A stretch of DNA of 64,000 nucleotides from an uncultured Verrucomicrobiae bacterium (GCA_963707025.1 CAVPOM010000008.1:96001-160000), one strand, 5' to 3'. Shown: positions 5,788-34,398, counted from the first letter of the stretch. Made by a program: numbers and translations. The notes: generated by a model from the sequence alone, not told the origin.

Positions 5788-6055
5788 GCAGGTTAGTTTG
5801 GCATCGTTCATATAAGCCAAACCAAGAACTTCATCATGAGAGAAATTACTGCTTCCGATGTAGCTGCGTCCTGCACACAGGCCGTAACCCATCACGTCAC
5901 CCAGCAGGCTGCCAGAGGTTCCCTCCTGTGCGTTTCGACTACGGGACGCGAGGCTGGCTCCTCGGAGTCGGCTTCAGCATTTACCCGATCACGGTTGCAC
6001 GGTGGATTTTATAGTTGAATTAGAAGCTGATCTTGCACATTGGAAAGGGAATCAC

Positions 6056-7046
6056 ATGAACCAAAGAAGACTTGGATCACAGGGATTGACGGTTTCAGCG
6101 CTCGGACTCGGGTGCATGGGGATGTCGGAGTTCTACGGCGCGCGCGATGACCAGGAATCCATCGCCACGATCCACCGCGCGGTCGCTCTCGGGGTGACTT
6201 TGCTCGACACGGCGGACATGTACGGCTGCGGCGAAAACGAGCGGCTGGTCGGACGCGCCATCAAAGGCCACCGACGCGAGGTGATCCTGGCCACGAAATT
6301 CGGAAACGTGCGCGACGAGCGGGGCAATTTTCTGGGCGTCAATGGCGCGCCCGAATATGTCCGCCAGTGCTGCGATGCCAGCCTGCGGCGGCTGGGCGTG
6401 GATGAAATTGACCTTTACTACCAGCACCGGGTGGACCCGAAGGTGCCGATTGAGGAAACCGTCGGAGCGATGAGCGAATTGGTTCGCGCCGGAAAGGTGC
6501 ATTACCTGGGATTGTCCGAAGCGGCGCCCGCGACGATCCGGCAGCGCGATGAAAGCGCATCACATCAGCGCGTTGCAGACGGAGTATTCCCTGTGGACGC
6601 GCGATGTGGAGGCGGAAATTCTGCCGGTCTGCCGGGAACTGGGGATCGGCTTCGTGGCCTACAGCCCGTTGGGTCGCGGGCTTTCTCACGGCGAAATTCA
6701 AGAAAGCCGACGACCTGCCGCCGGGGGATTGGCGCCGGAACTCGCCGCGCTTCCAAGGGAGAGAACTTCGAGCGCAATCTGAGAATTGGTTGAGCGGATC
6801 GAAGCGCTGGCGAGGCGGAAGAAATGCACGGCAGCGCAACTGGCTTTGGGCTGGGTGCTGGCCCAAGGCGACGACATCGTTCCAATTCCCGGCACCAAGC
6901 GACGGAACTATCTGGAAGAAAACGTGGCGGCGCTGAACATCGAACTGACACCGGCGGATCTGGAAGAAATCTCGGCAGCGGCGCCTCCCGGAGCCGCCGC
7001 CGGCATGCGTTACCCGGAAGCCGGCATGCAGAGCGTCAACCGCTGA
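6056..7046 (+). CDS. Aldo/keto reductase (about three frameshifts between 6545 and 6765)
   Basis: [36 protein letters not shown], then [16 protein letters not shown] and PIPGTK in successive frames. Confidence 0.92.
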
Positions 7047-7096
7047 CCGTGAGATTCTGCTAAGTCGGGTCAAACCCGAGGAACGCGACAACCCGC

Positions 7097-7996
7097 TCAT
7101 TCAGCGTTATAAGGTATTAAAGACGGTCCTGTTTGTTCGTGCGACTTAAAGCGGACCAGGGCGCGAGCCATTGAACTCGTGGCGTAGCAATAGGCGCAGT
7201 TAAACAGGCACGAGTCATACATGCCGATATCTCTGCTGACAACGCAACCGCACGCAATCCGCTGCGCCGGGTCTTTCTGGTGATTCACATTGATGTTGAA
7301 AACCTTCAAAATCAAATCATCGTCCACGCACTTGCCAGGTTTGACTCCATAGCGGCTCAAATCAATCTGCTCGGCGCAACTCGTAATCTCCATGTTGTTC
7401 CGTTTGGCCGCGTTCACCATTTCAACCATGGTGCGCCCCAATTCGGCTTCGTTGCATTCGATAGGCACTATTCCCTGGCGGCTCAGAGCCTCCACCAGCG
7501 TCTTGATCTTATTATAAATATCCACAATGCTGGTCACCGACCTATGGGTGAAACCGCGAAGCGCGTCCGCAATGGAAGAATAGGAGTCAACGTGAAAACT
7601 TGGTTGGGTGACCGTCGTGAAGAAAATCGGATCGTACCGCCAAATAACGCGGCCGGGACCAATTCGCTCGGCCAGCTTTTTGAAAGTGGAAAGGGCGTCG
7701 GCAACACCCGGCACCTTCGGGTCGATCTCCCTGGGGTTGTTTAGGACTGTGTATTGAAAGTAATAGCGCAATCCCCGGCTGTCTAATTCGTCCAAATGCT
7801 GCATGAGCGGCTTGGGATTGCGAGTCCAAAATACAATTGCGGCTACATCGTCTGGTTTTAGGGAAACGCGACAAACCTGCTTTGGATTCACGGGATTGGG
7901 GACCTCGCAGTAACCGGCACGGACACGATTGATCAACCACTCCGAATAAAATGCGGCTATATCGGTACGACGACTGGCACTGATTATAGTCTGCAT
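7097..7996 (-). CDS. DUF1848 family protein (radical-SAM-like)
   Basis: IISASRRTDI..FY.EW, VFWTRNP, WRYDPI and C-terminal CGC..SRDIG.YDSC...C.YCYA. Confidence 0.88.
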   Translation of the reverse strand: MQTIISASRRTDIAAFYSEWLINRVRAGYCEVPNPVNPKQVCRVSLKPDDVAAIVFWTRNPKPLMQHLDELDSRGLRYYFQYTVLNNPREIDPKVPGVADALSTFKKLAERIGPGRVIWRYDPIFFTTVTQPSFHVDSYSSIADALRGFTHRSVTSIVDIYNKIKTLVEALSRQGIVPIECNEAELGRTMVEMVNAAKRNNMEITSCAEQIDLSRYGVKPGKCVDDDLILKVFNINVNHQKDPAQRIACGCVVSRDIGMYDSCLFNCAYCYATSSMARALVRFKSHEQTGPSLIPYNAE

Positions 7997-8106
7997 AAAG
8001 CGTTCGCTTCAGGGATGCCGCATTTAAATGCCTGGCGTCCTAACGCGCTTTTCAATAATACTCAAGTCGTTTTAGACGCATCTTTTCACGCCAAAGCTTG
8101 ATTTGT

Positions 8107-8352
8107 TCACCCCTGTTGCCCAAGATACCACTGGTCCGATTCGAGGTCGTGTTTGAGCAGGTACTCGCGCTCGTTCACGGCGCGCACTTTGAAATAGTCA
8201 GCGCGGGGCCACTCGGGTTTGCTCTCGACCTGGTACCAGCGGTCGAGCACTTCGCCCACTTCGATGGTCCGTCCTTGCCGGATGAACCGGCGGGGCGTCT
8301 CGCCGACTTTGGCCCCGGCGTAGCATTCGACTTGAATCGGGGTGAGTTTCAT
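8107..8352 (-). CDS. Small conserved hypothetical protein (DUF6504-like)
   Basis: VECYAG....ETPRRF......EV.EVLDRWY...DYFKV...YLL....DQW; its start overlaps the upstream gene's stop. Confidence 0.65.
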   Translation of the reverse strand: MKLTPIQVECYAGAKVGETPRRFIRQGRTIEVGEVLDRWYQVESKPEWPRADYFKVRAVNEREYLLKHDLESDQWYLGQQG

Positions 8353-10856: not shown

Positions 10857-10942
10857 CTGACCACCCGACTCTGACCGGCCCAGTTCCTGACCGCTCCAGT
10901 TCCTGACCGCCCCAGCCCTCGACCGCCCCAGCTCCCGACCGC
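10857..10942. repeat. Imperfect 16-bp tandem repeat, about 5.5 copies (consensus CTGACCGCCCCAGYTC)
   Basis: Units start at 10857, 10871, 10887, 10903, 10919 and 10935. Confidence 0.85.
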
Positions 10943-11374
10943 TTATGTTTTTCCCAACCAACAGGCACTTGATAGACTAAAGTGCCGCGATCGCCTCAAA
11001 TCTCCCGGCAACGATGGAAAGACGTTGCTTCGCACCCAGCATCCCAGAACAGATGTCCAGAAAGGGAATCAGCAAAGTCGGGGTGCCGCAGGATTTTAAG
11101 AAATTCAGAAGCCACAAACGCTCGAATCGGGGCAGCCGCCTGGGCAACATCGTTCACGATGCTGGCGCGTCCATCCACCAATGTAACGATGCTGGTAGCG
11201 CCCGCGCTGAGACGAAACTTCCGCGCTGAAATCCTGCCTGGGATCGGCTTTTGCTGCTACGCAAGCTGACCGGAGCAACACGAAAGGATGTAACGCATCG
11301 AAGAATGAGATGGCATTGGAGGATGGCCATTCACCATCTTGACCTTGCTCGACGCAGAGCGGTTGAAAGCGAAG

Positions 11375-14300
11375 TTATCGCAGACTGGCATCCAGAATCA
11401 TTGCCCGAACCTTGATCCGCGCTTTGGACAACTCTGCTGCTTTGGCGTCAAGGCTCTCCTGCAACGCACTTTTGTCGGAGGGCGTCAAGTGCCTGCGGCG
11501 GTAATCTCCATCGTCCCATTTGTCACTGGTGAACCATCCCACCAAATAAACTCCATGCCGGCATGGGTTGTCTTGAAGGTAACGTCCGGCCAGTTGCGAT
11601 TCCAAGTCCGTCTCCAATTTGGGGTTCCAGGAACATTTTGTCTCGATAATGACACTGACCGTCTCATAAGAGCCGCCCTCCTCTTTCGCCACCGCATCCA
11701 CATGGATGTCTGTCTCCTGGCCGCGTCGAATCTCAACTTCACGTTTGGGAATGATGCCGCGTGAAATTAGATCGGTCTGGAGATGCTCCTTGGCAAGGTC
11801 CGCAAACGCGGCTTCGTCCTTCGGTCGAAATATGTTCTTGGCAACCTCATTCCAGAGATACTGGCGGAGAGGCGTCTCGCCTTGCAATTTTGCTCCCAGC
11901 TTGGAGAGGCTCTCCATGACAGCTTCCAGCAATTCATCGGCATCCCGGACGAGGCGGGCATCCCTTTGGTCGGCAAAAGCGAACAACTCGCCGGGGATGG
12001 GTGGCCGCCAGTTCTTCTTGCGTGTGATCGCCTTGGCGTGTGACAGCACTTGGTTGAGACCCAATTGGGGCAACCTGCTCTGGATGGATTCGATGGCAGA
12101 AAGGGTCGCCGGTGTTCCACGCTCGGAAAGATGTTGGAGCACTCCATCGCGCAATCGCTCGATCTTTTCCTCAGGGCCAACGAAATGGGCACGGGTGCGC
12201 CTGTTGTCCTTTTCATGCGGATAGTGCTCGACAAGCCAGCAATATAGTTCTGCAACTTGGTCTTCACTCAATCGATTAAGGAGCACGGTCGGCGTGAGAA
12301 AATAAGTGTAAGCAAGTCTTGCTACGAAATTTCTCCCAAAAGGGCCATCCTCGAGAATCAAAGGCCACAACGCATTCCAACTTCCTGGGGAATGCTCGAC
12401 CAAGATTCCAGCGGCAGCCAACGCTTTCTGACGGCTGGATTCATCGGCGGATGAGCGGAGATCAAGCAGCGATGAACCAAGTGAAACTGCATCGGTCTCC
12501 CTGTGCGCCATCAGGGCTTTGAGGAGGTCTGCCAGAGTATCCGGGCTGGTTTCCGGGTCTTTGGCGGTTTGGAGAACGAGGCCGGCAATCCGGCTGTCCC
12601 ACAAACCGCCCAACTTCCTCAAGACGGCCGGTCCTGCGGATTCCCGCTTCTCTTTTTGCAAGATTCTCGCAAACCATAACAGTGTGTCTTCCGGGACGAC
12701 CTCGTAGGCTTTTCGCGTCAAAATCGTGTGGGGTTCAAGTTCATCAAATACTGGATAACCCAGAATGATTGCGACCCACTTACTCCAAACACTGACGGGC
12801 AACGCGGGAAACAGGAGTGGTGCTTCCTTGTAAAGGAGATAAAGCGCCTTGAAGCCGGCTGCGGCCGGAAGATGGACAATGTTTGGTTCCGTAAACCAGG
12901 CATCGGGATTGGCGTCTTTGTCCCGGATATAAGTTTCCGCAGCTTTGATGATCCGGCCTCGAACTGACGAATCCGCCTCCTTCCAACCAGGCAATTGTGT
13001 AACGTCGGAAGCTTCTTCATTATCGTAATAGTTGCTCTTCGCTGTCAAGCAGAGTTCCCTGACCAGCAGCCAAAAGACATCTGTATTCCCGCCTTCGAAT
13101 TGCTCCAGAATTGAAAGGACTCTCTTATAGGGAGGCGGATCCAGTGGTTGTTGTGCTTCCGCTTCGTCTTGGTGGATGCTGGCGAGAGCTTCATACTCTT
13201 CACGCTCCCTTTTCGCTCTTTCTGAACCAAGTTCAATCGGACTCAAGTCGGGCAAGAATCGCTTGTGTGCGGCAGGGATTTTCTCCGCAAGACTCATGAT
13301 CCTTTCGGTTTGCGACCAATCCATTTTGATCCAAGCCAACTGCAACCACTGCGCCAGCACCGCCTGGCGCTCGCGGTTGTCTTCTCGCTCCAGATGATCC
13401 GCCAACCAGTTGAAATCATTTCGAGTCAGTATCGGACACTCCCCCATGAACATGGTCACCGACCCCTGGCTCTCATTGGCTTGCGAAAGTTCACACAGAA
13501 TTGTCTCGACAATATGCAACCTCAGTTGGTCGTCAGTCTTGAGCATCTGCAGCCACTCGTCAGACCGGATGTCCAAATCATGCTTTCGCAGCCGATCCAG
13601 GATCGTTCTTGAAAACTCATCAAGCACATCAGGTCCCTCCAGATTATTAGCAGCAATTTTGAGGATCTCCTCTAGTAGTTTGCCAAAGGAAGGACGAAGC
13701 CCACGTCGTGGCTTTTGCTGTCGCACCCATCTGAGCGCCTGTGGCAAATGTTCCGCCTTTATGTTGCCGATGAGCCGACGCGCTAGGAAATGCTTGTACG
13801 TGCCATAGAACCCGTTCTCTGGTGGAAGCGTCAGCACTGAAAAAAGTTCAGCACCGGACATTTGCTCCGGCCAACACGCTTCGAGGGCGCACCCCTTTAA
13901 ATCGTTTTTTGGGTCTTCTTCGGCGGATAGGTGGACCAGGGGCTTCAATCGCCCTTTTTCGGTCGCCAAACCGAGGTGGGCCACAAATAAAGCGGCGCCT
14001 TTGCGAAGCTGACTCTCCTCGCTGTGGTCCAACGCGATTTCCGCCAAGTCGTTGGCAAATTCCGTCAGTTCACAAGCTTCAGCGAGGTTGATTGCTTCCA
14101 ACCGGGCGTTCATTGACTTCGACCGGTCCAGGATGTACGGGCGGAGTTGGTCTGCCATTTTTGGATGCTTGAGTTTTGGCCACCTTTGACGCGAGGGAAG
14201 GCTGTCTAAGACTCCATCGTTGAGTTGTTTTAACAGGACTCTCACAAGTCCTTCTTTGTCTTCCTCGCCTGCGGACGAAATGTCGCTGCGCAACAGTATA

Positions 14301-16588
14301 TCCGGCTCGGTCTTGAACATAGCCTCACGGATACAGGCATCCATCGTCGCCAGCCAGGCTGCGGTTTCATGGAGTTGCGGAACCAGTTTTCCCTCGGCAT
14401 CTCCGTGATAGACCAACAACTTGAGCATTTTCTCAAGCGACATCTTGCTGTCATGAAGAAACTGAGCGGCCAGGAACTCGGCATACGTTTGATGCGCCCA
14501 TCCCAATCGGTTTTTTCCGCGAGAGCAGAACAATCCCGTATCAAGCGTTTCCTTCAGAATTTCATGGGTGACCGGAATTCCGGTTGCGGAAAAAGGCCCC
14601 GCACACAACTCGTCCAAAGTCAGGTCTGATTCCAACGGATCGCCGCAATTTGATTCCGTCCAAATCGCGTCCCGTTGGCACAAAATGGTCGCGGCCGCAA
14701 TGCGCGTGGCGATTTGAAACCGTTGGTCGCGCGTGAGCTTGCAAACTCCTTTCGCCCGTCTTCGGCCAGGGCTTTGCTCCTCGCAGAGAATGCGGCAGCC
14801 ATCTGCATACAGTTGCTTTTGGCTAAAACCATGCAAAGTGCCGCGTTGGAAGGCCAGAAGCAGGAATTTGAGCGTAATCGGTTTGAAGGCCAAAGCAACC
14901 AAGTCATGGTCGTCAATCAATCGCTGGAGAGCATTTGCGTCAATGCCACTGCCTTTGGCTGCTTCGCTGACATCGTTTCTGGTCAGCGGAGCCAATTCGT
15001 ACACGCCGAAGTCGGGTTCGAGCCATTTCGATTTCAGGGCTTGCTCCAATTCCGTCGGCCAGTCCGCCGTCCGGCACGCAATGCGGAGAGACAGACCTTT
15101 TACTGAGGGGAGTTGGCCGATCTCATCAGCCAATAATCCGGCGATGGTTTGCTGGTTCAAGAGCGCCTCGTCCAAGCTATCGAGGAAAAGATGAAGTTGA
15201 AATTCGCCGTTGGACCATCCCCGGAACTCGGGTGAACCAAACAAATCTTTCCTCAACCGTTCTTCGTTTCCATACGATTTAAGATCGAGAAAGAGCGGCT
15301 TCACCTTCGTGGCTTTCATCGAAGCATGAGCGGCTTTCACCGCCGCTCCGATGGCATGGCTCTTTCCCATCCCCGGCTCGCCCAACAAGACAAGGCATGG
15401 AATGGAGGCGATGGACTCATACGGCACCACTTCAGGTCGGGATTTGTCCCATGGAAATGAAGCGAGGTAAGGAAATCCGCCATCCGCGAGGCTGACTCTG
15501 CCTCCGCGGACCACCCACAATCGTTGCCAATTGAAGTCCCCGGCCGCCGGCAAGGTCCTTTGCATCGCTTCAATCAGACCGCCGGGTTTTCCCGGCAGAA
15601 GGTCAGCGCCGCCTCGCCTGGTGACGGGACGTTTGGGGATCGCCCGCAGCAGGTCATTTTCCACCTCGCGGAGGATTTTATCCTGTTCCGATTCCAGAAT
15701 GTAGGCCGTTAAATTCTCCTCGCGCATCGCGAAGACGCGGCGCCATACCGTGCTCAATGCCCGGGCTTGAGTTCTCCAATCAAACCAGCAAATCCCTTCA
15801 TCGAGAGCGCCAAGAAAACGCAACACCCTTTCGGAATCCGCAAAATACTCCTTTGCATTGCCGATATTCCGGACTTGGAAAACACCGGCGGATGTCATGT
15901 CCAACAGAGCATCTTGCACGCGACGCTGGGAATAGCCGAGTTCGCGGGCGATGCGCGTTGGATTAGAGGCTCCTTGCAACACGACGAAGGTAAAAACATC
16001 CGCGCGAATGCTCACACCAAACAATGCCCTTGCTTTGAACATGAAGTTCGCGGCGCTCCACTCCGATGCCGGCGACGCCAAGACAGGTGACGAAAGACCA
16101 CGCGTTTCCACAGGCGTGCGGAGCAATCCATAGGATTTGAAAGTGGCGTCTGGCTCCGAACCGGGCAGGAACAGCGGTTGGCCGTTTTTGCGGAATAGCG
16201 CCTCAGCCGACTTGTCCGGGAGTGGTTTTAACCTGGCTGCCAAGTTGCGCCATTTGGGTGTCTTGTCGTGACCCGACAGGGTGGCCGCGACAGCTCCCAA
16301 CACCTCTGGGGCGCAAATCCTGTCCGCATCAGACAACGCTGAAAGTCGGGCGACATTGATCCATCGGCCGTTCGTAATAAGCCAGTCGAGAACCTCGTCG
16401 AAGGTCCGCGGATCGTGCCGGGCGACCTCCAAGGTCAGCAGCAACAACGGCTCTGGGTCTATGACACGCGCTTGCTCCGGGGCGCGGGTGGCCATGACGC
16501 CGACGGCGGCCCACTGCTCAAGAACGAAGTTCAGTACCAGTTCGCTCAGTTTTTCCCTAAATTTGTTCAGCGATTCGCTCATAACCAA
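11375..16588 (-). CDS. 1737-aa multidomain protein: wHTH-containing N-terminal region + NACHT/STAND NTPase + helical repeats + C-terminal PD-(D/E)xK-like nuclease
   Basis: HTH NPTRIARELGYSQRRVQDAL; Walker A LLGEPGMGKS; Walker B LFLDSLDE; IACRT; WAHQTYAEFLAA; long helical region; C-terminal REVEI...TDIHVDA...IIETKCSWN. Confidence 0.8.
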   Translation of the reverse strand: MVMSESLNKFREKLSELVLNFVLEQWAAVGVMATRAPEQARVIDPEPLLLLTLEVARHDPRTFDEVLDWLITNGRWINVARLSALSDADRICAPEVLGAVAATLSGHDKTPKWRNLAARLKPLPDKSAEALFRKNGQPLFLPGSEPDATFKSYGLLRTPVETRGLSSPVLASPASEWSAANFMFKARALFGVSIRADVFTFVVLQGASNPTRIARELGYSQRRVQDALLDMTSAGVFQVRNIGNAKEYFADSERVLRFLGALDEGICWFDWRTQARALSTVWRRVFAMREENLTAYILESEQDKILREVENDLLRAIPKRPVTRRGGADLLPGKPGGLIEAMQRTLPAAGDFNWQRLWVVRGGRVSLADGGFPYLASFPWDKSRPEVVPYESIASIPCLVLLGEPGMGKSHAIGAAVKAAHASMKATKVKPLFLDLKSYGNEERLRKDLFGSPEFRGWSNGEFQLHLFLDSLDEALLNQQTIAGLLADEIGQLPSVKGLSLRIACRTADWPTELEQALKSKWLEPDFGVYELAPLTRNDVSEAAKGSGIDANALQRLIDDHDLVALAFKPITLKFLLLAFQRGTLHGFSQKQLYADGCRILCEEQSPGRRRAKGVCKLTRDQRFQIATRIAAATILCQRDAIWTESNCGDPLESDLTLDELCAGPFSATGIPVTHEILKETLDTGLFCSRGKNRLGWAHQTYAEFLAAQFLHDSKMSLEKMLKLLVYHGDAEGKLVPQLHETAAWLATMDACIREAMFKTEPDILLRSDISSAGEEDKEGLVRVLLKQLNDGVLDSLPSRQRWPKLKHPKMADQLRPYILDRSKSMNARLEAINLAEACELTEFANDLAEIALDHSEESQLRKGAALFVAHLGLATEKGRLKPLVHLSAEEDPKNDLKGCALEACWPEQMSGAELFSVLTLPPENGFYGTYKHFLARRLIGNIKAEHLPQALRWVRQQKPRRGLRPSFGKLLEEILKIAANNLEGPDVLDEFSRTILDRLRKHDLDIRSDEWLQMLKTDDQLRLHIVETILCELSQANESQGSVTMFMGECPILTRNDFNWLADHLEREDNRERQAVLAQWLQLAWIKMDWSQTERIMSLAEKIPAAHKRFLPDLSPIELGSERAKREREEYEALASIHQDEAEAQQPLDPPPYKRVLSILEQFEGGNTDVFWLLVRELCLTAKSNYYDNEEASDVTQLPGWKEADSSVRGRIIKAAETYIRDKDANPDAWFTEPNIVHLPAAAGFKALYLLYKEAPLLFPALPVSVWSKWVAIILGYPVFDELEPHTILTRKAYEVVPEDTLLWFARILQKEKRESAGPAVLRKLGGLWDSRIAGLVLQTAKDPETSPDTLADLLKALMAHRETDAVSLGSSLLDLRSSADESSRQKALAAAGILVEHSPGSWNALWPLILEDGPFGRNFVARLAYTYFLTPTVLLNRLSEDQVAELYCWLVEHYPHEKDNRRTRAHFVGPEEKIERLRDGVLQHLSERGTPATLSAIESIQSRLPQLGLNQVLSHAKAITRKKNWRPPIPGELFAFADQRDARLVRDADELLEAVMESLSKLGAKLQGETPLRQYLWNEVAKNIFRPKDEAAFADLAKEHLQTDLISRGIIPKREVEIRRGQETDIHVDAVAKEEGGSYETVSVIIETKCSWNPKLETDLESQLAGRYLQDNPCRHGVYLVGWFTSDKWDDGDYRRRHLTPSDKSALQESLDAKAAELSKARIKVRAMILDASLR

Positions 16589-17156
16589 TTCGTTCCAGCA
16601 CTTGGCAGAGGGCGGATTTGAACTCCGGACTGGCTTCTCGCCCGAGCAGCCAGGAGACTGCGGCCCTCACTTCATGTTCCTTCGGCTTGAGATCAAGCAG
16701 GTCGCTGAGGTGCCGGGTGCCTTCCTTCGGGTCCATGGCCGCGTACATTTTGAAATGCACCTGGTCAAAGCGGTTGATGAAATAAACTGTCAAACATGCT
16801 CCGTAGGATTTCTTAATGAGCCGCGTGGTCATGTTCAGCGGAAATCCAAAGGCGATCAGCGGACTGGCATGGAAGTTGAACCAGTCTTTCCGAATGTCTA
16901 ATTCAATCCCGATTTCCGCCACCAACCGTTCAACGTCTGCGGGCAGATTCTTGTCCGCCAGAACTTCAACATTAACCTGATTCACGCGAAGAAGTGCGAT
17001 GATATCAACGTCCTCTGTTGCCCGAGCCACTAAACCAACAGCGATGAGTGCAGTGCCTCCACACACCGCCACATTGAGCGGTTTCACCTCCGCATACACC
17101 ATTTTTCGATTCAGGTGGCTCAAGATTTCATTTATATTATCAGCCGATATACTCAT
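16557..17156 (-). CDS. DUF6036/AbiEii-like nucleotidyltransferase
   Basis: VCGGTAL...RATEDVDII (GG plus DxD pol-beta motif), WFN, FKMYAA.D...HLSDL; overlaps the start of the downstream gene. Confidence 0.85.
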   Translation of the reverse strand: MSISADNINEILSHLNRKMVYAEVKPLNVAVCGGTALIAVGLVARATEDVDIIALLRVNQVNVEVLADKNLPADVERLVAEIGIELDIRKDWFNFHASPLIAFGFPLNMTTRLIKKSYGACLTVYFINRFDQVHFKMYAAMDPKEGTRHLSDLLDLKPKEHEVRAAVSWLLGREASPEFKSALCQVLERIGYERIAEQI

Positions 17157-17167
17157 AAACGACGGTT

Positions 17168-17204
17168 TAATGCTTATATTAAGCGTTATTACGTCAAATG
17201 TCAA
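17168..17204 (-). promoter_or_regulatory. Sigma70-like promoter overlapped by an inverted-repeat operator
   Basis: Minus strand TTGACA (17204-17199), 17-bp spacer, TAATAT (17181-17176). Inverted repeat TAATGCTTA-N3-TAAGCGTTA at 17168-17188. Confidence 0.6.
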
Positions 17205-17530
17205 ATGGAAGTTTAGACTAAAATCGCTAAAGATGCAGAGGGCTTGGCACCAATGGATTTTGCCAAAGGGGCGCAAAGGCCCGGCAGAAAGCGTTCCAAG
17301 TGCCGGTACTGCGGCAGCCATTGCGCAAGAACGCTTCACATTTTAACGATTTTGTCAATTTGGCCGGCGACGGGGACGAACCGCGACCGCGCCCCTACCG
17401 CGCCTTCCATGAATACTTTGTTTCCGACCCATGAAGGCAAGGAGGAGTGCTGGGCCTTCGCCGCTTCACAGCGGTAACTCCGCAAGAGCCGTTGACCCCA
17501 TCCTGAGTTGCTGGTAGCGTCCACGTTGAG

Positions 17531-19653
17531 ATGAAAGCCACCCGATTGCTCCTGATGCTGGCGATGGCTTGGGGGATGCCCTCCAGGGGCTCAGGTTACC
17601 AACGGCCTGTTGGTCAACTCGTTTGAAACCAGCGCGGACCTGCTGCGATTCACGCGGAACAATTGCACCGTTTCTTCTTCGACCGAGGGGGTCACCGATG
17701 GGCAGAAAGCGGCCCTGGTCGTCTTTTCCAACGTGGATTGGCCCAACCTCCTTTTCAAAGTGGGAACGGGTTTTACCAACGGCGACTGGCGCGGCTGGGG
17801 CGCTGTGGCGATGGACATACTCAATACCAACCCGGCCAGCGTGATGGTGGACATCCGCGTGGATGACGACTTCTCGGCGGACGGAGCGAAACACTGCCAG
17901 ACCGGCTCCATTGGCGTTCCTGCGGGGCAAAAGGCTGCCGTGGTGATGCCCTTGAGCAAGAGCATTCCTCCTGGCATGAAAGGCGGCCCACCGATTTACC
18001 CTGGCGCTCTCCAAATGAACGTCTCCGGCCCCTCCATAGACCTTTCGCACATCGTCGCTTTCCAGATTTTCCTCCCCAGACCGGGCAGGCAAACGACCCT
18101 GTTCCTCGACAATATCCGCCTGTTGCCTCCGACGCCGCTGAACGGCTTGGCTGACCAGTACGGCCAATTCACGCGCGCCGATTGGCCGGGCAAAATCCAT
18201 CAGAACGCGGATTTCCAGCAGCAGGACACCGATGAAAAACAGTGGCTCGCCGCCCATCCGAAGCCTCCAGACCGGGATCTCTATGGCGCCTGGAGGGATG
18301 GTCCCCAGCTCACCAACAACGGTTTCTTTCGCACCGCCTTCGTGCTCAACGGGCAGGAGGTCAGCCCCGGTTCCGCGCCTGCCAACCAGGGTCGCTGGTG
18401 GCTTGTCGCACCGTCCGGGCGGCTTTTCTTCTCGCTGGGCGTGGACGTCATTGACTACGGAGAAACCACCCGCGTTGCCGGCCGGGAGAGCCTCTTCGAC
18501 TGGCTGCCAGGCCCCGGCGACCCGCTCCAGCAGTTTTCTTATCCCGGCCCCTCCAGGACGGCGGACTTTTATGGCATGAATCTTTATCGAAAGTACGGGA
18601 CCAACTGGAGGAGCCAGGCGCGTTCCCGCGCATTGGACCGGCTGGATTCCTGGGGCTTTAACACCATTGGTAACTGGTCCTCCAGCGATCTGTTTGACGC
18701 GCATCGCGTTCCCTACATCGTGTCGGTTGATTACAGCAATTCAGGCCTGGCCAAGTTCTTTTCCGCCGGCCAGCAAATGACGGATGTGTTTGATGCGCGT
18801 TTCCCCGCCCGGATGGCGGCGGGCATCTCCAACGCCGTTGCCTCCAGGAAGAACGATCCGTGGTGCCTGGGATATTTTGTGGAAAATGAACTGCCTTGGG
18901 CAGGCTGGGGCAGCGGCCCTACCGAGCAATACGCCCTGCCCATTGGCGTGCTGGCATCCACCAACGCCCTGCCCGCGAAGGCCGAGTTCGCCCGTCTGCT
19001 CCAGAGCCGATACTCCTCGATATCCCGGTTGAACACCGCGTGGAACACCAGCCTCGCTTCCTGGAACGACATTTCGAACCGCGCAGTCACACTTCCCTCC
19101 CCGCTGACGTCCGCCTATGTCGCAGACTTGGGCGGGTTCCTCACCGACTTCGCTGGCCGCTACTTCTCCATCGTCAGCGCGAACATGAGACGATTTGCAC
19201 CCAACCAGCTTTATCTCGGATGTCGGTTCGCATCCCAGCCAACCGAAACCGTGAGCGTTGCGGCCCAGTACAGTGATGTGGTCAGCTTCAACATCTACAA
19301 TCGAAGCCTGGATCCGAACACTTGGGGATTCGCCAGTACGCTGGGCAAACCCTGCGTGATTGGCGAATTCCACTTCGGCGCGCTGGATCGCGGAATGTTC
19401 CACCCCGGATTGGTGCGGACAGGAGACCAGGCGGACCGGGGACGGGCTTACCAGGAGTATATACGCAGCGTGCTCGCGCTGCCGGCATTTGTGGGGTGCC
19501 ACTGGTTCCAGGTACAGTGACGAACCCTTGACCGGACGTTTTGACGGGGAGAATTACAATATCGGCCTGGTTTCAGGCACCGACACTCCGTATGGGGAAC
19601 TGGTCGCCGCCGCGCGACAGATCCAGAGCGAAGTTTATACCCTTAAACAATGA
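17531..19653 (+). CDS. Secreted glycoside hydrolase, GH50 (beta-agarase/beta-galactosidase)-like (frameshifts near 17605 and 19512)
   Basis: Signal peptide MKATRLLLMLAMA; GRWWLVAPSG, WGFNTIGNWS, GYFVENELPW, IGEFHFGALDRG, GCHWFQ / DEPLTGRFDGENYNIG. Confidence 0.8.
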
Positions 19654-21245: not shown

Positions 21246-21881
21246 ATGCCTCTCCCCTGGCCAACATTCTGGCAGCATATTCGGGTGGAAGATCGCGCTG
21301 CGCTTTCTGATGTGCTCACCGAACTGCTCGCTCACGGCGCGTTGCTTGGCGATGGCGGCCGTGACCACGAACTCTACATGGTGGCCCGGGAATATCAGCG
21401 TGAAATTGGCGAATACCTCGCGCCGTTGCATCTTGAATTGGTGCCTGACCCCGACCGGCCTATTTTCCAGGTCCGCCCTGTGCCCGGCGATTGCGGCCTT
21501 ATGGCGCGATTCAATAAAGCCGAGACGTTGCTTGTTCTGACGCTCTGGCGGATCTATCACGATGCGCGTATGGAGCGGACGGTTGAGACCGTGGTCGTCA
21601 GCGCCAACGACATCTGGCAGCGGCTCAAGCTCTACTTTGAACAGGTGGACCTGCCCACTGCCTCGCAACTCCGTGACATGCTCGGCAAGCTGCGCAATCA
21701 ACGGCTTGTGCGTTTGCAATGGCACGAGGATCCGAATCAGTTTGGCGAATCTCAGGTGGAAATCCTGCCCACGCTGGCACGAGCGATTCCATTCGAGAAC
21801 GAGTCCGCTTGGGAACAGCAGGCTGCATTGTATCAGCAGCCAGACGCCGAAACCGAGGAGAAGAAGGAGGAAGCGCCGTGA
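21246..21881 (+). CDS. jetB: Wadjet subunit JetB (DUF4194-like)
   Basis: EYLAPLHLEL, ETLLVLTLWRIY, EILPTL; lies between JetA and the SMC gene. Confidence 0.8.
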   Translation: MPLPWPTFWQHIRVEDRAALSDVLTELLAHGALLGDGGRDHELYMVAREYQREIGEYLAPLHLELVPDPDRPIFQVRPVPGDCGLMARFNKAETLLVLTLWRIYHDARMERTVETVVVSANDIWQRLKLYFEQVDLPTASQLRDMLGKLRNQRLVRLQWHEDPNQFGESQVEILPTLARAIPFENESAWEQQAALYQQPDAETEEKKEEAP

Positions 21882-24800
21882 GCCAGCGCATTTCTCTCAC
21901 ACGCATCATCGCCATCAACTGGTATGGCTTCCGCCAGATTTTCGACGTGGACGATAATGTCCTTATCTCGGGCGCGTTCGGCACCGGCAAATCGGCATTG
22001 CTCGATCTGATGCAATACGTCCTGCTCGGTGAACACTGGCGGGCAAATCGGGCCGCCACGGGCAATGCGCGCGGACGAGATCTCGTGGGCTATTGCCTCG
22101 GCGACACCAATCAGGCGGGCAAAGATGGCGGCCGTCACTTCCTGCGCCGAGGCGGCGTTACCCTCGTCGCGCTGGAGTTCACGCGCCCTTCCAGTCGTTC
22201 CGGCAAAGGCTCTGATCGGGAGACATGGGGCGTCCGTCTCGAATATTCCAGTCCGGACGCAAGGCCAAAACACACGTATTTTTTCATTCCCTCACGGCTC
22301 GAATATGCCGACATCGCGCCGAACGGCAAGATGTTGGGCGAGGATGAATTCAAGACTTGGATTCGACGAGAGGCTTTCACCGACTTTCTCATCACGGAGC
22401 GCCAGGGCGACTATTTGAAGGAGATGGCAACCCCGCGCCATCTCAATTTCGATGACACTGCCTTTCATCGCACTTTTCCGAAGGCCATAGCTTTTGAATT
22501 GGAGGAGAACGTGGAACGGTTCATCCGTGAGTTCATCCTGGAGGAAAGCCCACTGGACGTTCCGCGCGGTCCGCGACGCGCTGCGCGCCTATGAAGATAC
22601 CCGCAAGCGGTTGGAGACGCAGGAGGATGAAGCGGCGTTTCTCCGGCGCATAGGGGAGCAGCACGCGCTTTACGAAACCAACCGGCGCGAAGAGGCGATC
22701 CACCAGCACACCGCCCATGCGCTTAAGCTCCTGCAGGCAGAGGAGCGCCGCGAACGCCACGCCGCCGATTTGAAGCGACTCGAAGAATCCAACGCGGACG
22801 ACCTCAAAAACTTGAGCAAGGCGACAGAGGAAGCTGCACAAGTCGGCAAACTTCTCAACGAAGTCCGGTTCCAAGTCGGCAAGGACCCTGAAGCTGTCAA
22901 AATCAACGAATTAGATCGTCAGAAATTGGAGCTTCAACAAGCTGTGCAAGCGCTGCAGGAGGCTCGAAAGTCCGCACGCCAGCGGCTTGACGATCGGCAT
23001 TATCGTTGGATGCAGTGGCTCAAACATGGCGCCGCCTTGCCGCTGGCTAATTTGAAGGAATTGCTCGTCGTGGACGATAGCCTGTTGGCGAATCTACGCT
23101 CCGGAACAGATGCAGAGCGACTCGCGGCGCTCCAAAAACTCGCGGAGCGATTCAATGAGTTGTGGAATTTAGTCCGGGATCTGACCCGTCCGCTGGAAGA
23201 GGAAATCAAGACCGCCAAGAACCGGCTCCAGCAGTTGGCGGAGGATTTGGAGAACCTTTCCAAGGGCCAGTCACCCGGCGCATTCCCGCTCTTTCAAGCT
23301 GTTCGCCAAAAACTCGGCAACCGCGTCGAACAGCTTGGCCGGCTCATCGAAGTGAAGCCTGAAGCGGAGCGCTGGTGGCCTGCGCTTGAACTTTTCCTAG
23401 GCCGCAATCAATTGGTCATTGTTGTGAACGATGTCGCCGATTATGGGCAGGCGCTGGAAATTCTGCGAAAGACGCCTGCGGGCCGCGAACCTGAGTCGCT
23501 GCTCAATCCCAACGAAGCCCGCCAGCTTCGTGCCGGTGCGCGCGAAGACTCGCTTTTCAGCAAAGTTGAGGTGGCGCATCCAGTCGCCCGCCATTACGTC
23601 GAGCATCTGTTGGGCGACGTGCTCTGTGTCGAGAATATCGAGGAATTGGAATCGGCCGACACAGGCCGGGCCATCACGCCTGAAGGAATCTTCAAGCAAG
23701 TGCCATTGCGTCGTCGTCTCAAGTCAGCCGCCTCCGTCGAACTCACTTTAGGCCGGCAGGGACTCGAACGGATGCGGGCCGCGAAGCAAAAAGAGCAGAT
23801 CAACACGCGGGTAGAGTTCAATGCCCTCCAACAACGGCTCAGCGACGTGCAGACATGGCTCGACAACGGTCGCAAAGGCGGTTTGGCCGACAGCACTCTG
23901 CCAGAGCGCGCCGCGGAACTGCCCCAACTGCCCCAACTTGAGGCTAATCTGGGCCGTGTGGGTGAGACCATCAAACTATTGATGACACCGGAGCGGGAGG
24001 CGCGTCAGAAACATTTGAACAGCCTTGAGAAAACCGAAAAGGAGCTTCTCGCGAAGGTCGCCGTTCTGACTGAGAGACGAAACAATTTCGAACTGACCAC
24101 ACGACCCGAACGCGAGGGATTGGCGCGGGCGGAACAAGACTCGAAAGATGCGCGATTGGAAGTCGAAGCCAGCCGCGTCGAACTCAGCCGCCGCTGTAGT
24201 GGGATCCTTGACGGCGAACTCACAGAGCGGCGCGATCAATTCCACTCTGAATTTCCGAAATGGACGGAATGCTTTTCCAAGGTGGCCGAAGCGTCCGCCC
24301 AAGCCGGACAAATCGCCGTGGCGGCTCGGGCGCAGCGAAATGGTGAACGAGAGAAGCTGGCTACCATCCGTGACGAGCAGGGGAACCTCCGCCATCCCGA
24401 ATACCAGGGCGAATTCACGATTGACGATGAAAGTAACGAGGGCTGGTCAGCGCGGCTGCGCGTTTTGGAAGCCGTCGAGTTGGAGAAATCCCGCCAGCTT
24501 GCCGCCGACCGAAAACGAGAGTGGGAGCGCCGGCTGGAAGAGAACGTCCTCAACGAACTGAACCGGCGCATCACCGACGCGCAAAACACGGTTCGTCTGC
24601 TGGACCGTTACCTGAGCCAGCCGGTCGGCAAATTTCGCTACCGGCTCAGTCAGCGGAGAGATTCCGCCGGCTACGGAGCGATCTGGCGATTGCTCGATTC
24701 CGGGCTGGAACCGACCGATCCGTTGACCGCAGCCATCCAGGAAACGGAAATTCAGCACGCCAAAGATGAGTTGATGAAGGCAGTTGACGGAACCGAGCGC

Positions 24801-25295
24801 AAAGATCCCGAGCAGGATGCGCGCGCATTGCGCCTGCTGGACTACCGGAACTATCACCGCTACGACTTGGAAATGGTGCCCGCCGACAAGCCCGAGTCGC
24901 CGCCGATTTCGCTTGGCCGCAGCGGCCGCAACCTGAGCGGCGGCGAGGGGCAGGCCCCTTTCTTCATCTCAATGCTCGCGGCGTTTCGGCGGGTATATGA
25001 TCGTGGCGACCGCACCTCCGTTCGCTCGCAACAAATTGGTTTAGTCGTCATGGATGAAGCCTTTTCCAAACTTTCCAGCGACGGCATCGAAGACTGCCTG
25101 GCGCTGGCGCGCAGCTTCCAGTTGCAGCTCGTGATGGCTTTCCCGCCAGAGCGCCTCGGAGTGATGGTGCCGCACGCGGAAACCGTCGTGATGTGTCAAA
25201 AGGAGGTCGAGCGCGATGCGGAAGGATACGTCACAAAAATAACCAACATTCCGATGCTCACCACAATGGCCGAGGCCATTGAAGCCCTCTCCTGA
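21878..25295 (+). CDS. jetC: Wadjet SMC-like ATPase JetC (frameshift near 22560)
   Basis: LTRIIAINWY, Walker A GAFGTGKS, long coiled coils, signature LSGGE, Walker B VMDEAF. Confidence 0.9.
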
Positions 25296-31819: not shown

Positions 31820-31841
31820 CATTTTGCCAACACCGGCCATC

Positions 31842-34398
31842 ATGGCGAAGCACCCTTTACTAATATTCCCGAAGTCCGTCCCGGTTGACCGGGAAAAGCT
31901 CCGACCGGCCTATATCCCTCGCGCGGCCATCGGTCGTCGTTGGCAGGACTCTCACGTAGGACAACCACTCCTCAAATTGGAAGCAGCGATCGCCCGCCGC
32001 ACATTGGAGCTTTCCACCACTGCCTCGGGCGCAACAGCGGAAGAAGTGCTTGTCTTGGAAACGATTGGCAACGTAATTGATTTCGTTAATGCTGTCCGTC
32101 GGATTGAGGGTTTGGAGTGGCTGGTTTCCTTCGATGTCGCCGAAGCCGATGAGGAAAATCTTCCTTCGCTGGATGCTCCGGACGACGACTTCACGGAGGG
32201 GGGAAATCGTCTGTTCGCGCTCGCGACCGATGCCCAGGCTTTACACCAGCTCCTGTCCCTTTGGCAGAGGTACCAGACAGGTCAATCTTTTGAGCGCGGC
32301 TTCGGTGTATGGAAACAAGTTTTTGCACAATTGCGGGAGGTGCGGCGCTGGTCCGTAAAGGACCGCTTGTACGAGACAGGAATGGTAGAATTTTGGCGCG
32401 ATGCATTGGACATGGGTGATCCCACCATCACCTTTGCAGTAGAACTTTGGTTCCGTGCAAATCCAAGTGTGCGCCGCGCTCGGTTCGAATCGCTTCAGGC
32501 AGAAGCCGTATCTCTCGGTGGTCGGTTGGATCACTCCTACGAGCACGAGCCCACAGCCTTTCATGCCGCGGTGGCGACTTTTCCGCCGTCAGTTGTGAGG
32601 CAATTCCTCGAGCAGCCAGATACTTCGGCCTTTCTTGAGCGTGCCGAGGTTATGTATTGTCGTCCCCATGGACAGACCGCCATTCCGCTCCAAGACGGCG
32701 ATGCGTTCGGGATCGCCACAATCCCCACAACACCGCCGCCAGGGGAGCCTATGGTCGCCCTGCTCGACGGTTTGCCAGTGGAAAACCACTCTGCTTATGC
32801 TGGCTGGCTGCGGGTGGACGACCCCGACGGTTGGGCGGCAACGTATGAGGTGCGTGACAGACAACACGGGACGGGCATGGCTTCGCTAATCGTCCGGGGA
32901 GACCTAAGTTTAAATGAGGCGCCAATCAATTCGCCATTATATGTCCGTCCAATCCTCAAGCCGGACCCCAGCGATTTCCGCCGACCGCGACGGGAGGCTA
33001 TGCCGTTCGGGCGATTCCCCCAGGACTTGCTTGAGATTGCTGTCCGCCGATTCAAGATTGGAGATCCCGATAACCCCGCGACCGCGCCGAGCATTCAGGT
33101 CGTAAATTTATCGGTAGGGGACCCGTCTCGGTTGTTCGACGGGAGCATGAGTCCGTGGGGTCGAATGGTGGATTATCTCGCTTGGCGCTACAACTTGCTT
33201 TTTATCGTAAGCGCGGGAAACCATGCCTCATTCCGGATAGAGAAATCTCTCGCTCAGTGGGATTCTCTGACACCAATCGAGCGCGAACAAGAGGCACTTC
33301 TCGCGTGTTGGCGCGATATTCGGCACCGTCGCCTTCTGTCGCCGGCCGAGGCGATCAATGCGGTGACGGTGGCGGCGTTGCATATAGATAACAGCGGCCC
33401 TCCGCCGCCGTCGGGCGCACTGGGTACTATCCCAATCCAGAACCCAAACATTGCCTGCACAACTTCAGCCTTTGGCCCAGGCTGTTGAACGCTCAGTGAA
33501 GCCTGACATCGCCCTTCCTGGAGGCAGAAATGTGATGCGGGCAGAGTCGGGCCTGATTGTCAGAGCGGCAGGCACAGCGAGACCCCCAGGCCAACTTGTA
33601 GCTGTCCCCAGTGCTCCTGCGGCAACCGCAACTGGCCATACTCGCGGCACCAGCAATTCCGCAGCGCTGGCCACCAGGCAAGCCGTCGCCATTATCGAGA
33701 CGCTACGCAGCCTGACAATCGATGAGAATTCAATACCTGACGAGTTTCTGCCCGTGCTCACGAAGACAATGCTGGCCCACGCGGCGTCCGCTGCCCAAGC
33801 TGCGGTCAGACTTAGAGAAGTTTTCGATCCAGGGCACGATCAACGGGTCAACCTATTTCGAAAGCGCCATATCATAACTACCGTCGGCTATGGCACAGTG
33901 GATCCTGCACGCGCTACTGGCGCAGACGACCACCGCGCGACGCTCATTGGATGGGGCGAGCTAAAAAAGGAGCAGGGGCACGAATTTCGCCTTCCCCTTC
34001 CGCCGTCGCTGAACGCGGTTCGTGGAAAGCGTAGGCTTACCTTCACGCTTGCTTGGCTGTCGCCAATCAATCCACAAAGCCGCGCATATCGTTGTGCGCG
34101 CCTTTGGTTTTCGCCACCCAGCGAGACCCTCGCCACAGTACGCTCTGAGGCCGAATGGCGTTCTGTTCGCAACGGAACATTGCAGCACGAAATCTGGGAA
34201 GGTGAACAAGCGGCCGCCTTTTCCGATGGAACCGATATCGTCATCCGGGTGAACTGCCGGGAGGACGGCGGAAAGCTGCAGGGTGCTGTCCGGTATGGAT
34301 TGGCGGTATCCATCGAGGCTGCCGTCGAACTCGGACTGCCCATTTACGAAGAGGTCCGCCAAGCAATTGCCATTCGAGAGCCGATCCGGCCAACCTAA
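31842..34398 (+). CDS. ietS: S8 subtilase-family serine protease of an IetAS-like system (frameshift near 33478)
   Basis: Catalytic motifs ALLDG, HGTGMAS, SAGN, VKPDI, GTSNSA; no signal peptide. Confidence 0.85.

Follow-up and report, generated by a model that had tools for sequence, protein, structure and literature searches.

What is a probable toxin–antitoxin (TA) pair doing on an NLR-like receptor? In the 64,000-nucleotide stretch of an uncultured Verrucomicrobiae genome analysed here (GCA_963707025.1, CAVPOM010000008.1:96001–160000; hereafter the window), the gene of a nucleotidyltransferase (NTase) overlaps the start of a giant gene, whose product runs from a winged helix-turn-helix (wHTH) region into a NACHT ATPase and a nuclease-like end. 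A first-pass annotation proposed that this was a new defence system. The questions are whether the giant gene is real in this assembly, whether its parts are of known kinds, and what the join could do.

Architecture of the two-gene operon

The minus-strand frame 11375–16588 is open throughout and encodes 1737 aa counted from TTG 16588; the likely start, shared by the closest homologues, is ATG 16582, giving a fusion gene of 1735 aa (11375–16582). Residues of the fusion protein are numbered according to the 1737-aa form unless marked “from ATG 16582.” The NTase gene (16557–17156, minus strand, 199 aa) overlaps the ATG 16582 start of the fusion gene by 26 nt, and in related loci it nearly always ends ~22–28 nt inside the start of the partner. 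Ahead of both lies a sigma70-like promoter (17168–17204, minus strand), with a −35 box TTGACA at 17204, a −10 box TAATAT ending at 17176 and an inverted repeat (17188–17168) over the −10 box. With 2.7 sigma70-like sites expected in the region and three found, the site is weak alone; the likeness between the window cassette and related copies stops at the promoter box. The open frame, the 26-nt overlap and the promoter bear out the annotated layout of one promoter followed by an NTase gene overlapping the start of a 1737-aa ORF.

From the N-terminus, the fusion protein (all parts on the minus strand) begins with a helical domain, a predicted NTase-binding antitoxin domain for which no family name was found (residues 3–187; 16028–16582), followed by the wHTH (residues ~190–263; 15800–16021) and by the closing helices of the partner and a linker (residues ~264–349; 15542–15799), with the fusion point near residues 346–350. 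The NACHT/STAND ATPase module (residues ~350–760; 14309–15541) has its Walker A at 15359–15382 and its Walker B at D470. It leads into a long sensor region (residues ~761–1520; 12029–14308), presumably helical as in its family and the fastest-diverging domain, and the protein closes with a C-terminal nuclease-type domain (11375–12028) containing D1627, E1649 and K1651, which we take to be the motif of a PD-(D/E)xK-type nuclease. The Walker A and B motifs and the residues D1627/E1649/K1651 show no variation across 11/11 full-length fused proteins aligned, in keeping with the NACHT ATPase and nuclease-like end first annotated. Pfam PF28130 is a precomputed annotation on six fused proteins. RNA contigs from one run (X15) overlie stretches of the fusion gene in its 5′ half, which is no measure of expression.

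The in-frame fusion is real

Three genes of the window are split between frames, probably by assembly indels: JetC (21719–25295), IetS (31824–34395) and a gene at 6002–7046 that, from its sequence alone, we presume to be aldo-keto reductase-like. Because JetC and IetS are split, the junction within the giant gene was tested four ways. The alternative, raised as a caveat in the first-pass annotation, is that an indel has joined what is really a three-gene operon; beside the split genes, an internal Met at 15565 speaks for it. First, contig C7 of the same genome carries a second copy, 92% identical, in a single frame across the junction. Second, the Logan contigs of 3/3 DNA runs, from three studies, cross 15560–15660 with substitutions and zero indels, which answers the call for a check of the reads over this interval at the level of contigs, not raw reads. 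Third, residues 1–345, searched against proteins of 955–3040 aa, gave 11 matches among 7999 scored candidates (52–99% identical), and 11/11 have the N-domain with the same NACHT, eight of them at full length (1703–1782 aa); a twelfth fused homologue of 1747 aa has an N-domain 46% identical. Finally, the internal Met is present in 4/12 aligned fused rows and missing from the C7 copy.

The in-frame fusion of the N-terminal ~345 aa to an NLR-like protein is real because of the in-frame C7 copy, the indel-free contigs, the fused homologues and the unconserved internal Met. The first ~335 aa, with their wHTH, do run in frame into the NACHT, and we regard an operon joined by an assembly indel as next to impossible. 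The expected full-length homologues with an NTase gene upstream exist as well, at 8/8 intact-fusion loci having flanking DNA. The fusion is rare: open fused frames occur in 2/401 genomes of the order of the host, the source genome counted in.

Window positions 13122–14197, in the sensor, are identical to the C7 copy (G000:C7) over a 1076-nt run, the two being 80–95% alike elsewhere, which is either gene conversion or an assembly mosaic. A third, truncated copy (G000:C2:122870–124184) consists of the promoter and the first 42 NTase codons together with ~1.1 kb of the flank upstream, and lacks the partner.

The nucleotidyltransferase is a probable toxin

The window NTase scores below the gathering scores of two Pfam families, AbiEii (20.3 bits; gathering score 22.5) and DUF6036 (PF19502; 17.8 bits; gathering score 23.6), and 75/77 of its relatives match DUF6036 at E ≤ 0.01. 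Its best PDB match is MenT1 (8an4, E 0.055). The structure model (pLDDT 94.8) compares with MenT1 at VIA Z 8.1 and an rmsd of 4.2 over 163 residues, and the top fold matches include a fungal NTase-like protein (Z 8.3), MenT1 (8.1), MenT4 (7.3) and an AbiEi antitoxin chain (7.2). The fold and the GG (here G33–G34), RxTxDxD, K and D motifs of DUF1814 toxins are all present. R45, T47, D49, D51, K136 and D152 are conserved in 75–77 of 77 relatives and align with R37, T39, D41, D43, K137 and D152 of MenT1, so that in this alignment the catalytic residues of MenT1/AbiEii are kept; MenT1 T39 is described as the site of antitoxin-induced auto-phosphorylation (PMC11375011). We believe the NTase to be MenT1/AbiEii-like (DUF6036-like) and probably a translation-blocking toxin.

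The partner is predicted to bind the NTase active site

In the AlphaFold2 model of the partner (pLDDT 89.6), the wHTH occupies ~residues 190–263 and gives a fold comparison of VIA Z 9.9 with an rmsd of 2.8 over 72 residues. No AbiEi family is found among the matches listed for the 77 partners at E ≤ 0.05, which comprise 25 of 31 Pfam families, the other six each matching at most one member; nor did a profile search of the PDB with the partner match an AbiEi structure. Single-protein sequence searches of the PDB found nothing, Foldseek with the NTase and partner models gave no match at E ≤ 0.001, and the helical domain (residues 3–190, seen only within the partner model) had no usable named match in the Atlas. 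Comparison of their profiles shows no similarity between partner and NTase.

The suggested modelling of the complex gave 0.63 for NTase with partner against 0.00 for the best control; the mark for such models is reached by 116/157 solved and 2/215 mismatched pairs, rough counts that come from our own alignments. At least 71% of the contacts agree between runs, in which the partner has a pLDDT of at least 78. The predicted interface brings R45, T47 and residues 143–154 of the NTase together with the invariant R59, D62 and R155 of the partner (from ATG 16582), so the helical domain is predicted to bind the active site of the NTase; no solved complex like it was found. Beside this interface lies partner position 164 (from ATG 16582), a Ser/Thr kept in 74/77 relatives. 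The type IV, non-binding kind of TA pair first assumed is not borne out, since the model predicts direct binding and AbiE has been reassigned to type VII in a recent preprint (bioRxiv 2026.01.19.700257).

With the type VII TA systems MenAT1/MenAT3 and AbiE, whose toxins are DUF1814 NTases, the locus shares the toxin fold, the catalytic residues and the phosphoacceptor Thr. Direct antitoxin binding, predicted by a model with T47 in the interface, would be a further likeness, and so would autoregulation at an inverted repeat in the promoter, as for abiE. In contrast to these systems, the window partner matches no AbiEi family listed, has its wHTH in the second half and is fused to an NLR. The gene order differs too: here the NTase gene precedes the partner gene, whereas in AbiE and MenAT the antitoxin comes first.

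The inverted repeat of the promoter is a candidate operator for the wHTH. By itself the window repeat is not significant, being equalled in 74/200 shuffles; the promoter of the C7 copy has a perfect 9-bp inverted repeat, and 30/96 related promoters beat all 20 of their own shuffles where ~5 are expected, a count in which kin are not independent.

A widespread stand-alone pair

As a separate protein, mostly of 330–360 aa, the N-domain was found 86 times among 8000 candidates, and stretches of it were confirmed in GTDB contigs (345) and metagenomes (528), 80 being fetched from each. It occurs in 32/401 genomes of the order of the host. Verrucomicrobiota predominate among the named carriers, which also include Kiritimatiellota, Lentisphaerota, Acidobacteriota and others; in viral contigs, 0 relatives of the partner were confirmed among 49 pattern matches. 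A search centred on the NTase found the partner at 25/29 loci. The NTase and residues 3–346 form a widespread two-gene module, apparently undescribed, and the N-terminal ~345 aa of the giant protein are this usual partner of the NTase fused to an NLR-like protein, just as had been surmised.

The stand-alone pair lies directly before hsdS at 23/98 distinct loci with enough flank, and before hsdM at two more. The mapped operons have the order hsdM–NTase–partner–hsdS–(cargo)–hsdR, with the pair between hsdM and hsdS in L032, L034, L041, L055, L057, L065, L067, L153 and others. PrrC is described as a guard inside a type I restriction–modification (RM) system, forming a tRNA-targeting second line (PMC12707154). 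The likeness of our pair to PrrC/EcoprrI would be that of a tRNA-targeting toxin nested in another defence system as a second line; PrrC, however, is an anticodon nuclease under the restraint of the RM enzyme, whereas the NTase would be held by its own antitoxin, and homology is not claimed.

Some related loci depart from this scheme. The L153 operon also encloses a TIR gene and one that is CD-NTase-like. Intact related NTases without the partner are found at L261 (1123–2106) and L262 (1402–2447), with a conserved 120-aa basic gene just upstream that is a possible alternative antitoxin. In L080, a Planctomycetota record, a homologue of the partner is part of a 782-aa frame, possibly a different fusion.

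The NLR half is a relative of Avs10

Judged by profile matches, residues ~350–1737 are a relative of Avs10 (Erebus/Hypnos) that lies below the curated cut-offs. The NCBIfam models EruA (NF058535) and HyoA (NF058534) match at 2e-67 and 2e-50; the Avs10 equivalog cut-offs are missed (228/1000 and 171/1200), as they are by all 15 relatives scanned. The NACHT (EruA 1.3e-36, HyoA 3.1e-22), the first half of the sensor (HyoA 5.5e-7) and the C-terminal domain (EruA 2.4e-17, HyoA 3.9e-13) match the models in the same order, and a single alignment joins the fused homologue P0104 to EruA positions 18–1273 of 1318, with position 18 falling at about residue 385 in the fused form. The parent NACHT family, with 2239 representatives at E ≤ 1e-30, is normally unfused: the best 150 of these 2239 proteins are mostly ~1400 aa long and start at residue ~350 of the window protein, three having an extension of ~340 aa and one other an extension of ~190 aa. 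An unfused relative is located on a plasmid of Nostoc PCC 7120. Erebus, Hypnos and bNACHT64 are reported to constitute Avs10, which senses phage major capsid proteins (PMC13581612; bioRxiv 10.64898/2026.01.04.697583).

The window protein thus resembles Avs10 in its NACHT, whose Walker A and B are intact, in the first half of its sensor, by the HyoA match, and in its C-terminal domain, all three in the same order. Unlike Avs10, it starts with a further N-terminal antitoxin/wHTH module of ~345 aa, lies downstream of an NTase gene and scores under the cut-offs, and the second half of its sensor is without a match; Avs10 proteins begin at the NACHT, whereas the window fusion does not. As far as sequence can place them, both halves are like known kinds, Avs10 and MenAT/AbiE, and the locus as a whole falls outside Avs10, by cut-off and N-terminus, and outside AbiE, by antitoxin family.

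The proposal of a new defence system stands for the layout, as far as the literature searched goes, but not for the NACHT–sensor–nuclease part, which is a relative of Avs10/Erebus/Hypnos. In the literature searched, we found no described system with the same layout and no description of the pair, a search in which the large supplements of the STAND survey could list it and the original Erebus/Hypnos paper lay outside the coverage. The main text of that survey has no mention of nucleotidyltransferase, AbiE, HTH or toxin–antitoxin, and none of six terms was found in those of its supplementary files that were readable; literature on DUF6036, on bNACHT with SfsA, or on antiviral STAND proteins with an AbiEii TA and NLR yielded nothing. 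The recommended PADLOC comparison did not assign the fusion to any family at E ≤ 0.05, and the relatives give only weak matches to AbiEii or wHTH.

Probable history: one old fusion and repeated loss of the NLR

A NACHT tree of 62 rows separates the 13 fused proteins, as a single clade, from the 49 unfused (SH-aLRT 95), and its branching resembles that of the N-domain tree. In the N-domain tree, the fused rows fall into one clade (support 95 in the quick tree and 90 in a second tree); a topology in which the fused N-domains have a clade to themselves is rejected (AU p 2e-41), and the stand-alone forms therefore nest inside. The simplest account, to which the trees point, is one fusion, probably via a lost stop codon, and then repeated loss of the NLR, although recombination could mimic repeated loss. 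In the NLR losses, the breaks fall near residues 345–350 with unrelated DNA downstream, the antitoxin being spared whole, and the halves are therefore modular. Each half also occurs without the other. No clean three-gene form was seen, which carries little weight given that the NACHT has lost its own start.

Compared with L086, L006 and C7, the NTase and every folded domain have a dN/dS of 0.04–0.33, the exception being the near-identical C7 sensor at 0.52, and these ratios indicate that the folded domains are under purifying selection. The linker is of variable length and weakly constrained (0.33–0.77). The L092 row (0.95) was unreliable and left out, and the dN/dS of orphan partners does not separate selection before the loss from selection after it.

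Loss of the NLR seems to go with loss of the toxin. At 7/8 intact-fusion loci the NTase is intact, one locus being nearly identical to the window. At the seven loci of the NLR-lost clade, in contrast, it is broken or absent in five, carries G34D in one and is intact in one (L228), a reversion with the NLR lost and the NTase pair intact; outside the clade, the NTase is broken in 17/122 loci (Fisher p 0.0016 with G34D uncounted and 1e-4 with G34D counted, for a small sample in which kin are not independent). These counts point to a dependence of the NTase on the NLR within this clade; general decay also fits. The loci of this count were found with the partner as query, L089 and L092 having <150 nt downstream, and L090/L091 (rearranged), L119/L019 (several breaks) and L132 (frameshift, short flank) were left out.

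These results bear on whether the fusion is merely passive, that is, whether a stop codon between neighbouring defence genes was lost by read-through, the halves remaining independent and the join tolerated. The weakly constrained linker would agree with this, as would the working-looking reversion at L228, the start of the parent NACHT family at the junction, and the position of hsdS, which often starts 3–7 nt after the stop codon of the partner and makes read-through easy. A fusion that has lasted down to ~46% identity, with synonymous sites saturated and trees congruent, argues against passive persistence, and so does the correlation of NTase loss with NLR loss; we consider the idea improbable.

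The NLR can also persist without the NTase, since in L010 a frameshift disrupts the NTase gene while the fusion next to it is intact, and in runs X1 and X2 the NTase gene appears interrupted by an insertion element. Such cases, set beside the rarity of an intact NTase with a lost NLR (1/7), look as if the toxin usually goes first, and would suit a role in regulation and addiction only: the TA would give the costly NLR an auto-repressed promoter and make the cassette hard to lose, while the NLR would defend by its own nuclease, with no signal to the NTase. The promoter inverted repeats across the family, the occurrence, at unrelated sites, of a cassette bounded by promoter and stop codon, and deletions that spare the whole antitoxin are consistent with this. 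The deletions, however, also speak against it, since a cut after residue 346 leaves the antitoxin whole and addiction would therefore not protect the NLR part; moreover, at 105/122 loci that have no NLR the NTase of the ancestral pair is intact, whereas that of the reverted pairs mostly is not. Regulation and addiction alone thus seem to us a rather unlikely explanation, though one to be reckoned with.

The same broken NTases weigh on the polarity of the pair. In MNT-HEPN pairs the NTase acts as a modifying antitoxin, and the NTase here could likewise be a modifying enzyme or antitoxin that nucleotidylates its partner and holds the repressor or the NLR off, for which the leading position of its gene and the kept Ser/Thr at partner position 164 might speak. 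Yet loci with a broken NTase retain the partner or the fusion, at 17 of the 122 loci and in L010, X1 and X2; the partner is present at most NTase loci, and where an intact NTase lacks it, in two cases only, another small gene lies upstream; and the closest folds include MenT toxins. Such a reversal is, in our judgement, very improbable.

Genomic surroundings

The window is a defence island: between 19760 and 62967 it holds Wadjet jetABCD, IetAS, PDC-S19, a Lit-like protease, a type IIG restriction enzyme, DrmD-like helicases and a cytosine methyltransferase. On the other side of the cassette, a DUF1848 gene (7097–7996) has a strong PADLOC match to a DRT-associated model, and ~five tandem copies of a 16-nt unit lie at 10871–10950. 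A 28-bp direct repeat (86%; 11190–11217 and 17509–17536), longer in related contigs, flanks the cassette and is a possible insertion trace. A 37-nt stretch common to many contigs resembles the end of an insertion element, and the similar element that appears inserted in the NTase gene of X1 and X2 comes with an 8-nt duplication; the window positions concerned are 11245–11285 and 16901–16908. At L010, a SIR2-TIR gene (6799–8166) follows the fused gene and overlaps its end.

A proposed toxin–antitoxin arm tethered to the NLR

Our leading explanation, in which we place about as much belief as doubt, is that the TA pair is a back-up arm tethered to the NLR, in a two-gene anti-phage operon that arose from one old fusion with an Avs10-like NLR. 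It builds on the anatomy of the locus, the reality and age of the fusion, the intact catalytic residues and the linkage of the two genes, as observed above. To judge from its fold and motifs, the NTase would add nucleotides to tRNA 3′ ends and so stop translation. In the modelled resting state, the N-terminal helical domain would hold the NTase off at its active site, possibly via auto-phosphorylation of T47 as in MenT1/AbiEii, and the wHTH would repress the operon at the promoter inverted repeat. By analogy with Avs10, the sensor would bind a phage protein, probably the major capsid protein, whereupon the NACHT would oligomerise and the C-terminal nuclease cut DNA. In the least certain step, oligomerisation, or degradation or shut-off of the NLR driven by the phage, may free the NTase and lift the repression. 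The antitoxin being part of the NLR, the state of the toxin would follow the fate of the NLR, and the freed NTase would provide a second abortive arm as a guard outcome.

That the toxin is released during infection is something we infer. For AbiE/MenT-type toxins in general, the trigger of release during infection is called mostly unknown, and the AbiE of S. agalactiae is described as giving no protection against 32 coliphages (bioRxiv 2026.01.19.700257). A more specific form of the tethered arm, tentative and on the doubtful side, would be an immune receptor of double output: oligomerisation of the NLR, set off by the capsid, would fire the DNase and, through an antitoxin at the usual position of a STAND effector, would also release a tRNA-modifying toxin and lift the repression of its own operon, the pair being a portable guard that is also found in type I restriction operons.

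This work defines a widespread NTase family of TA-like pairs, an unnamed antitoxin domain and a frequent seat of the pair in type I restriction operons. As the antitoxin is welded to a receptor from a family with a known trigger, a single co-expression test could address TA activation by pattern recognition. If the proposed mechanism is true, a bacterial NLR would act by freeing a separate toxin, beyond clustering a fused enzyme.
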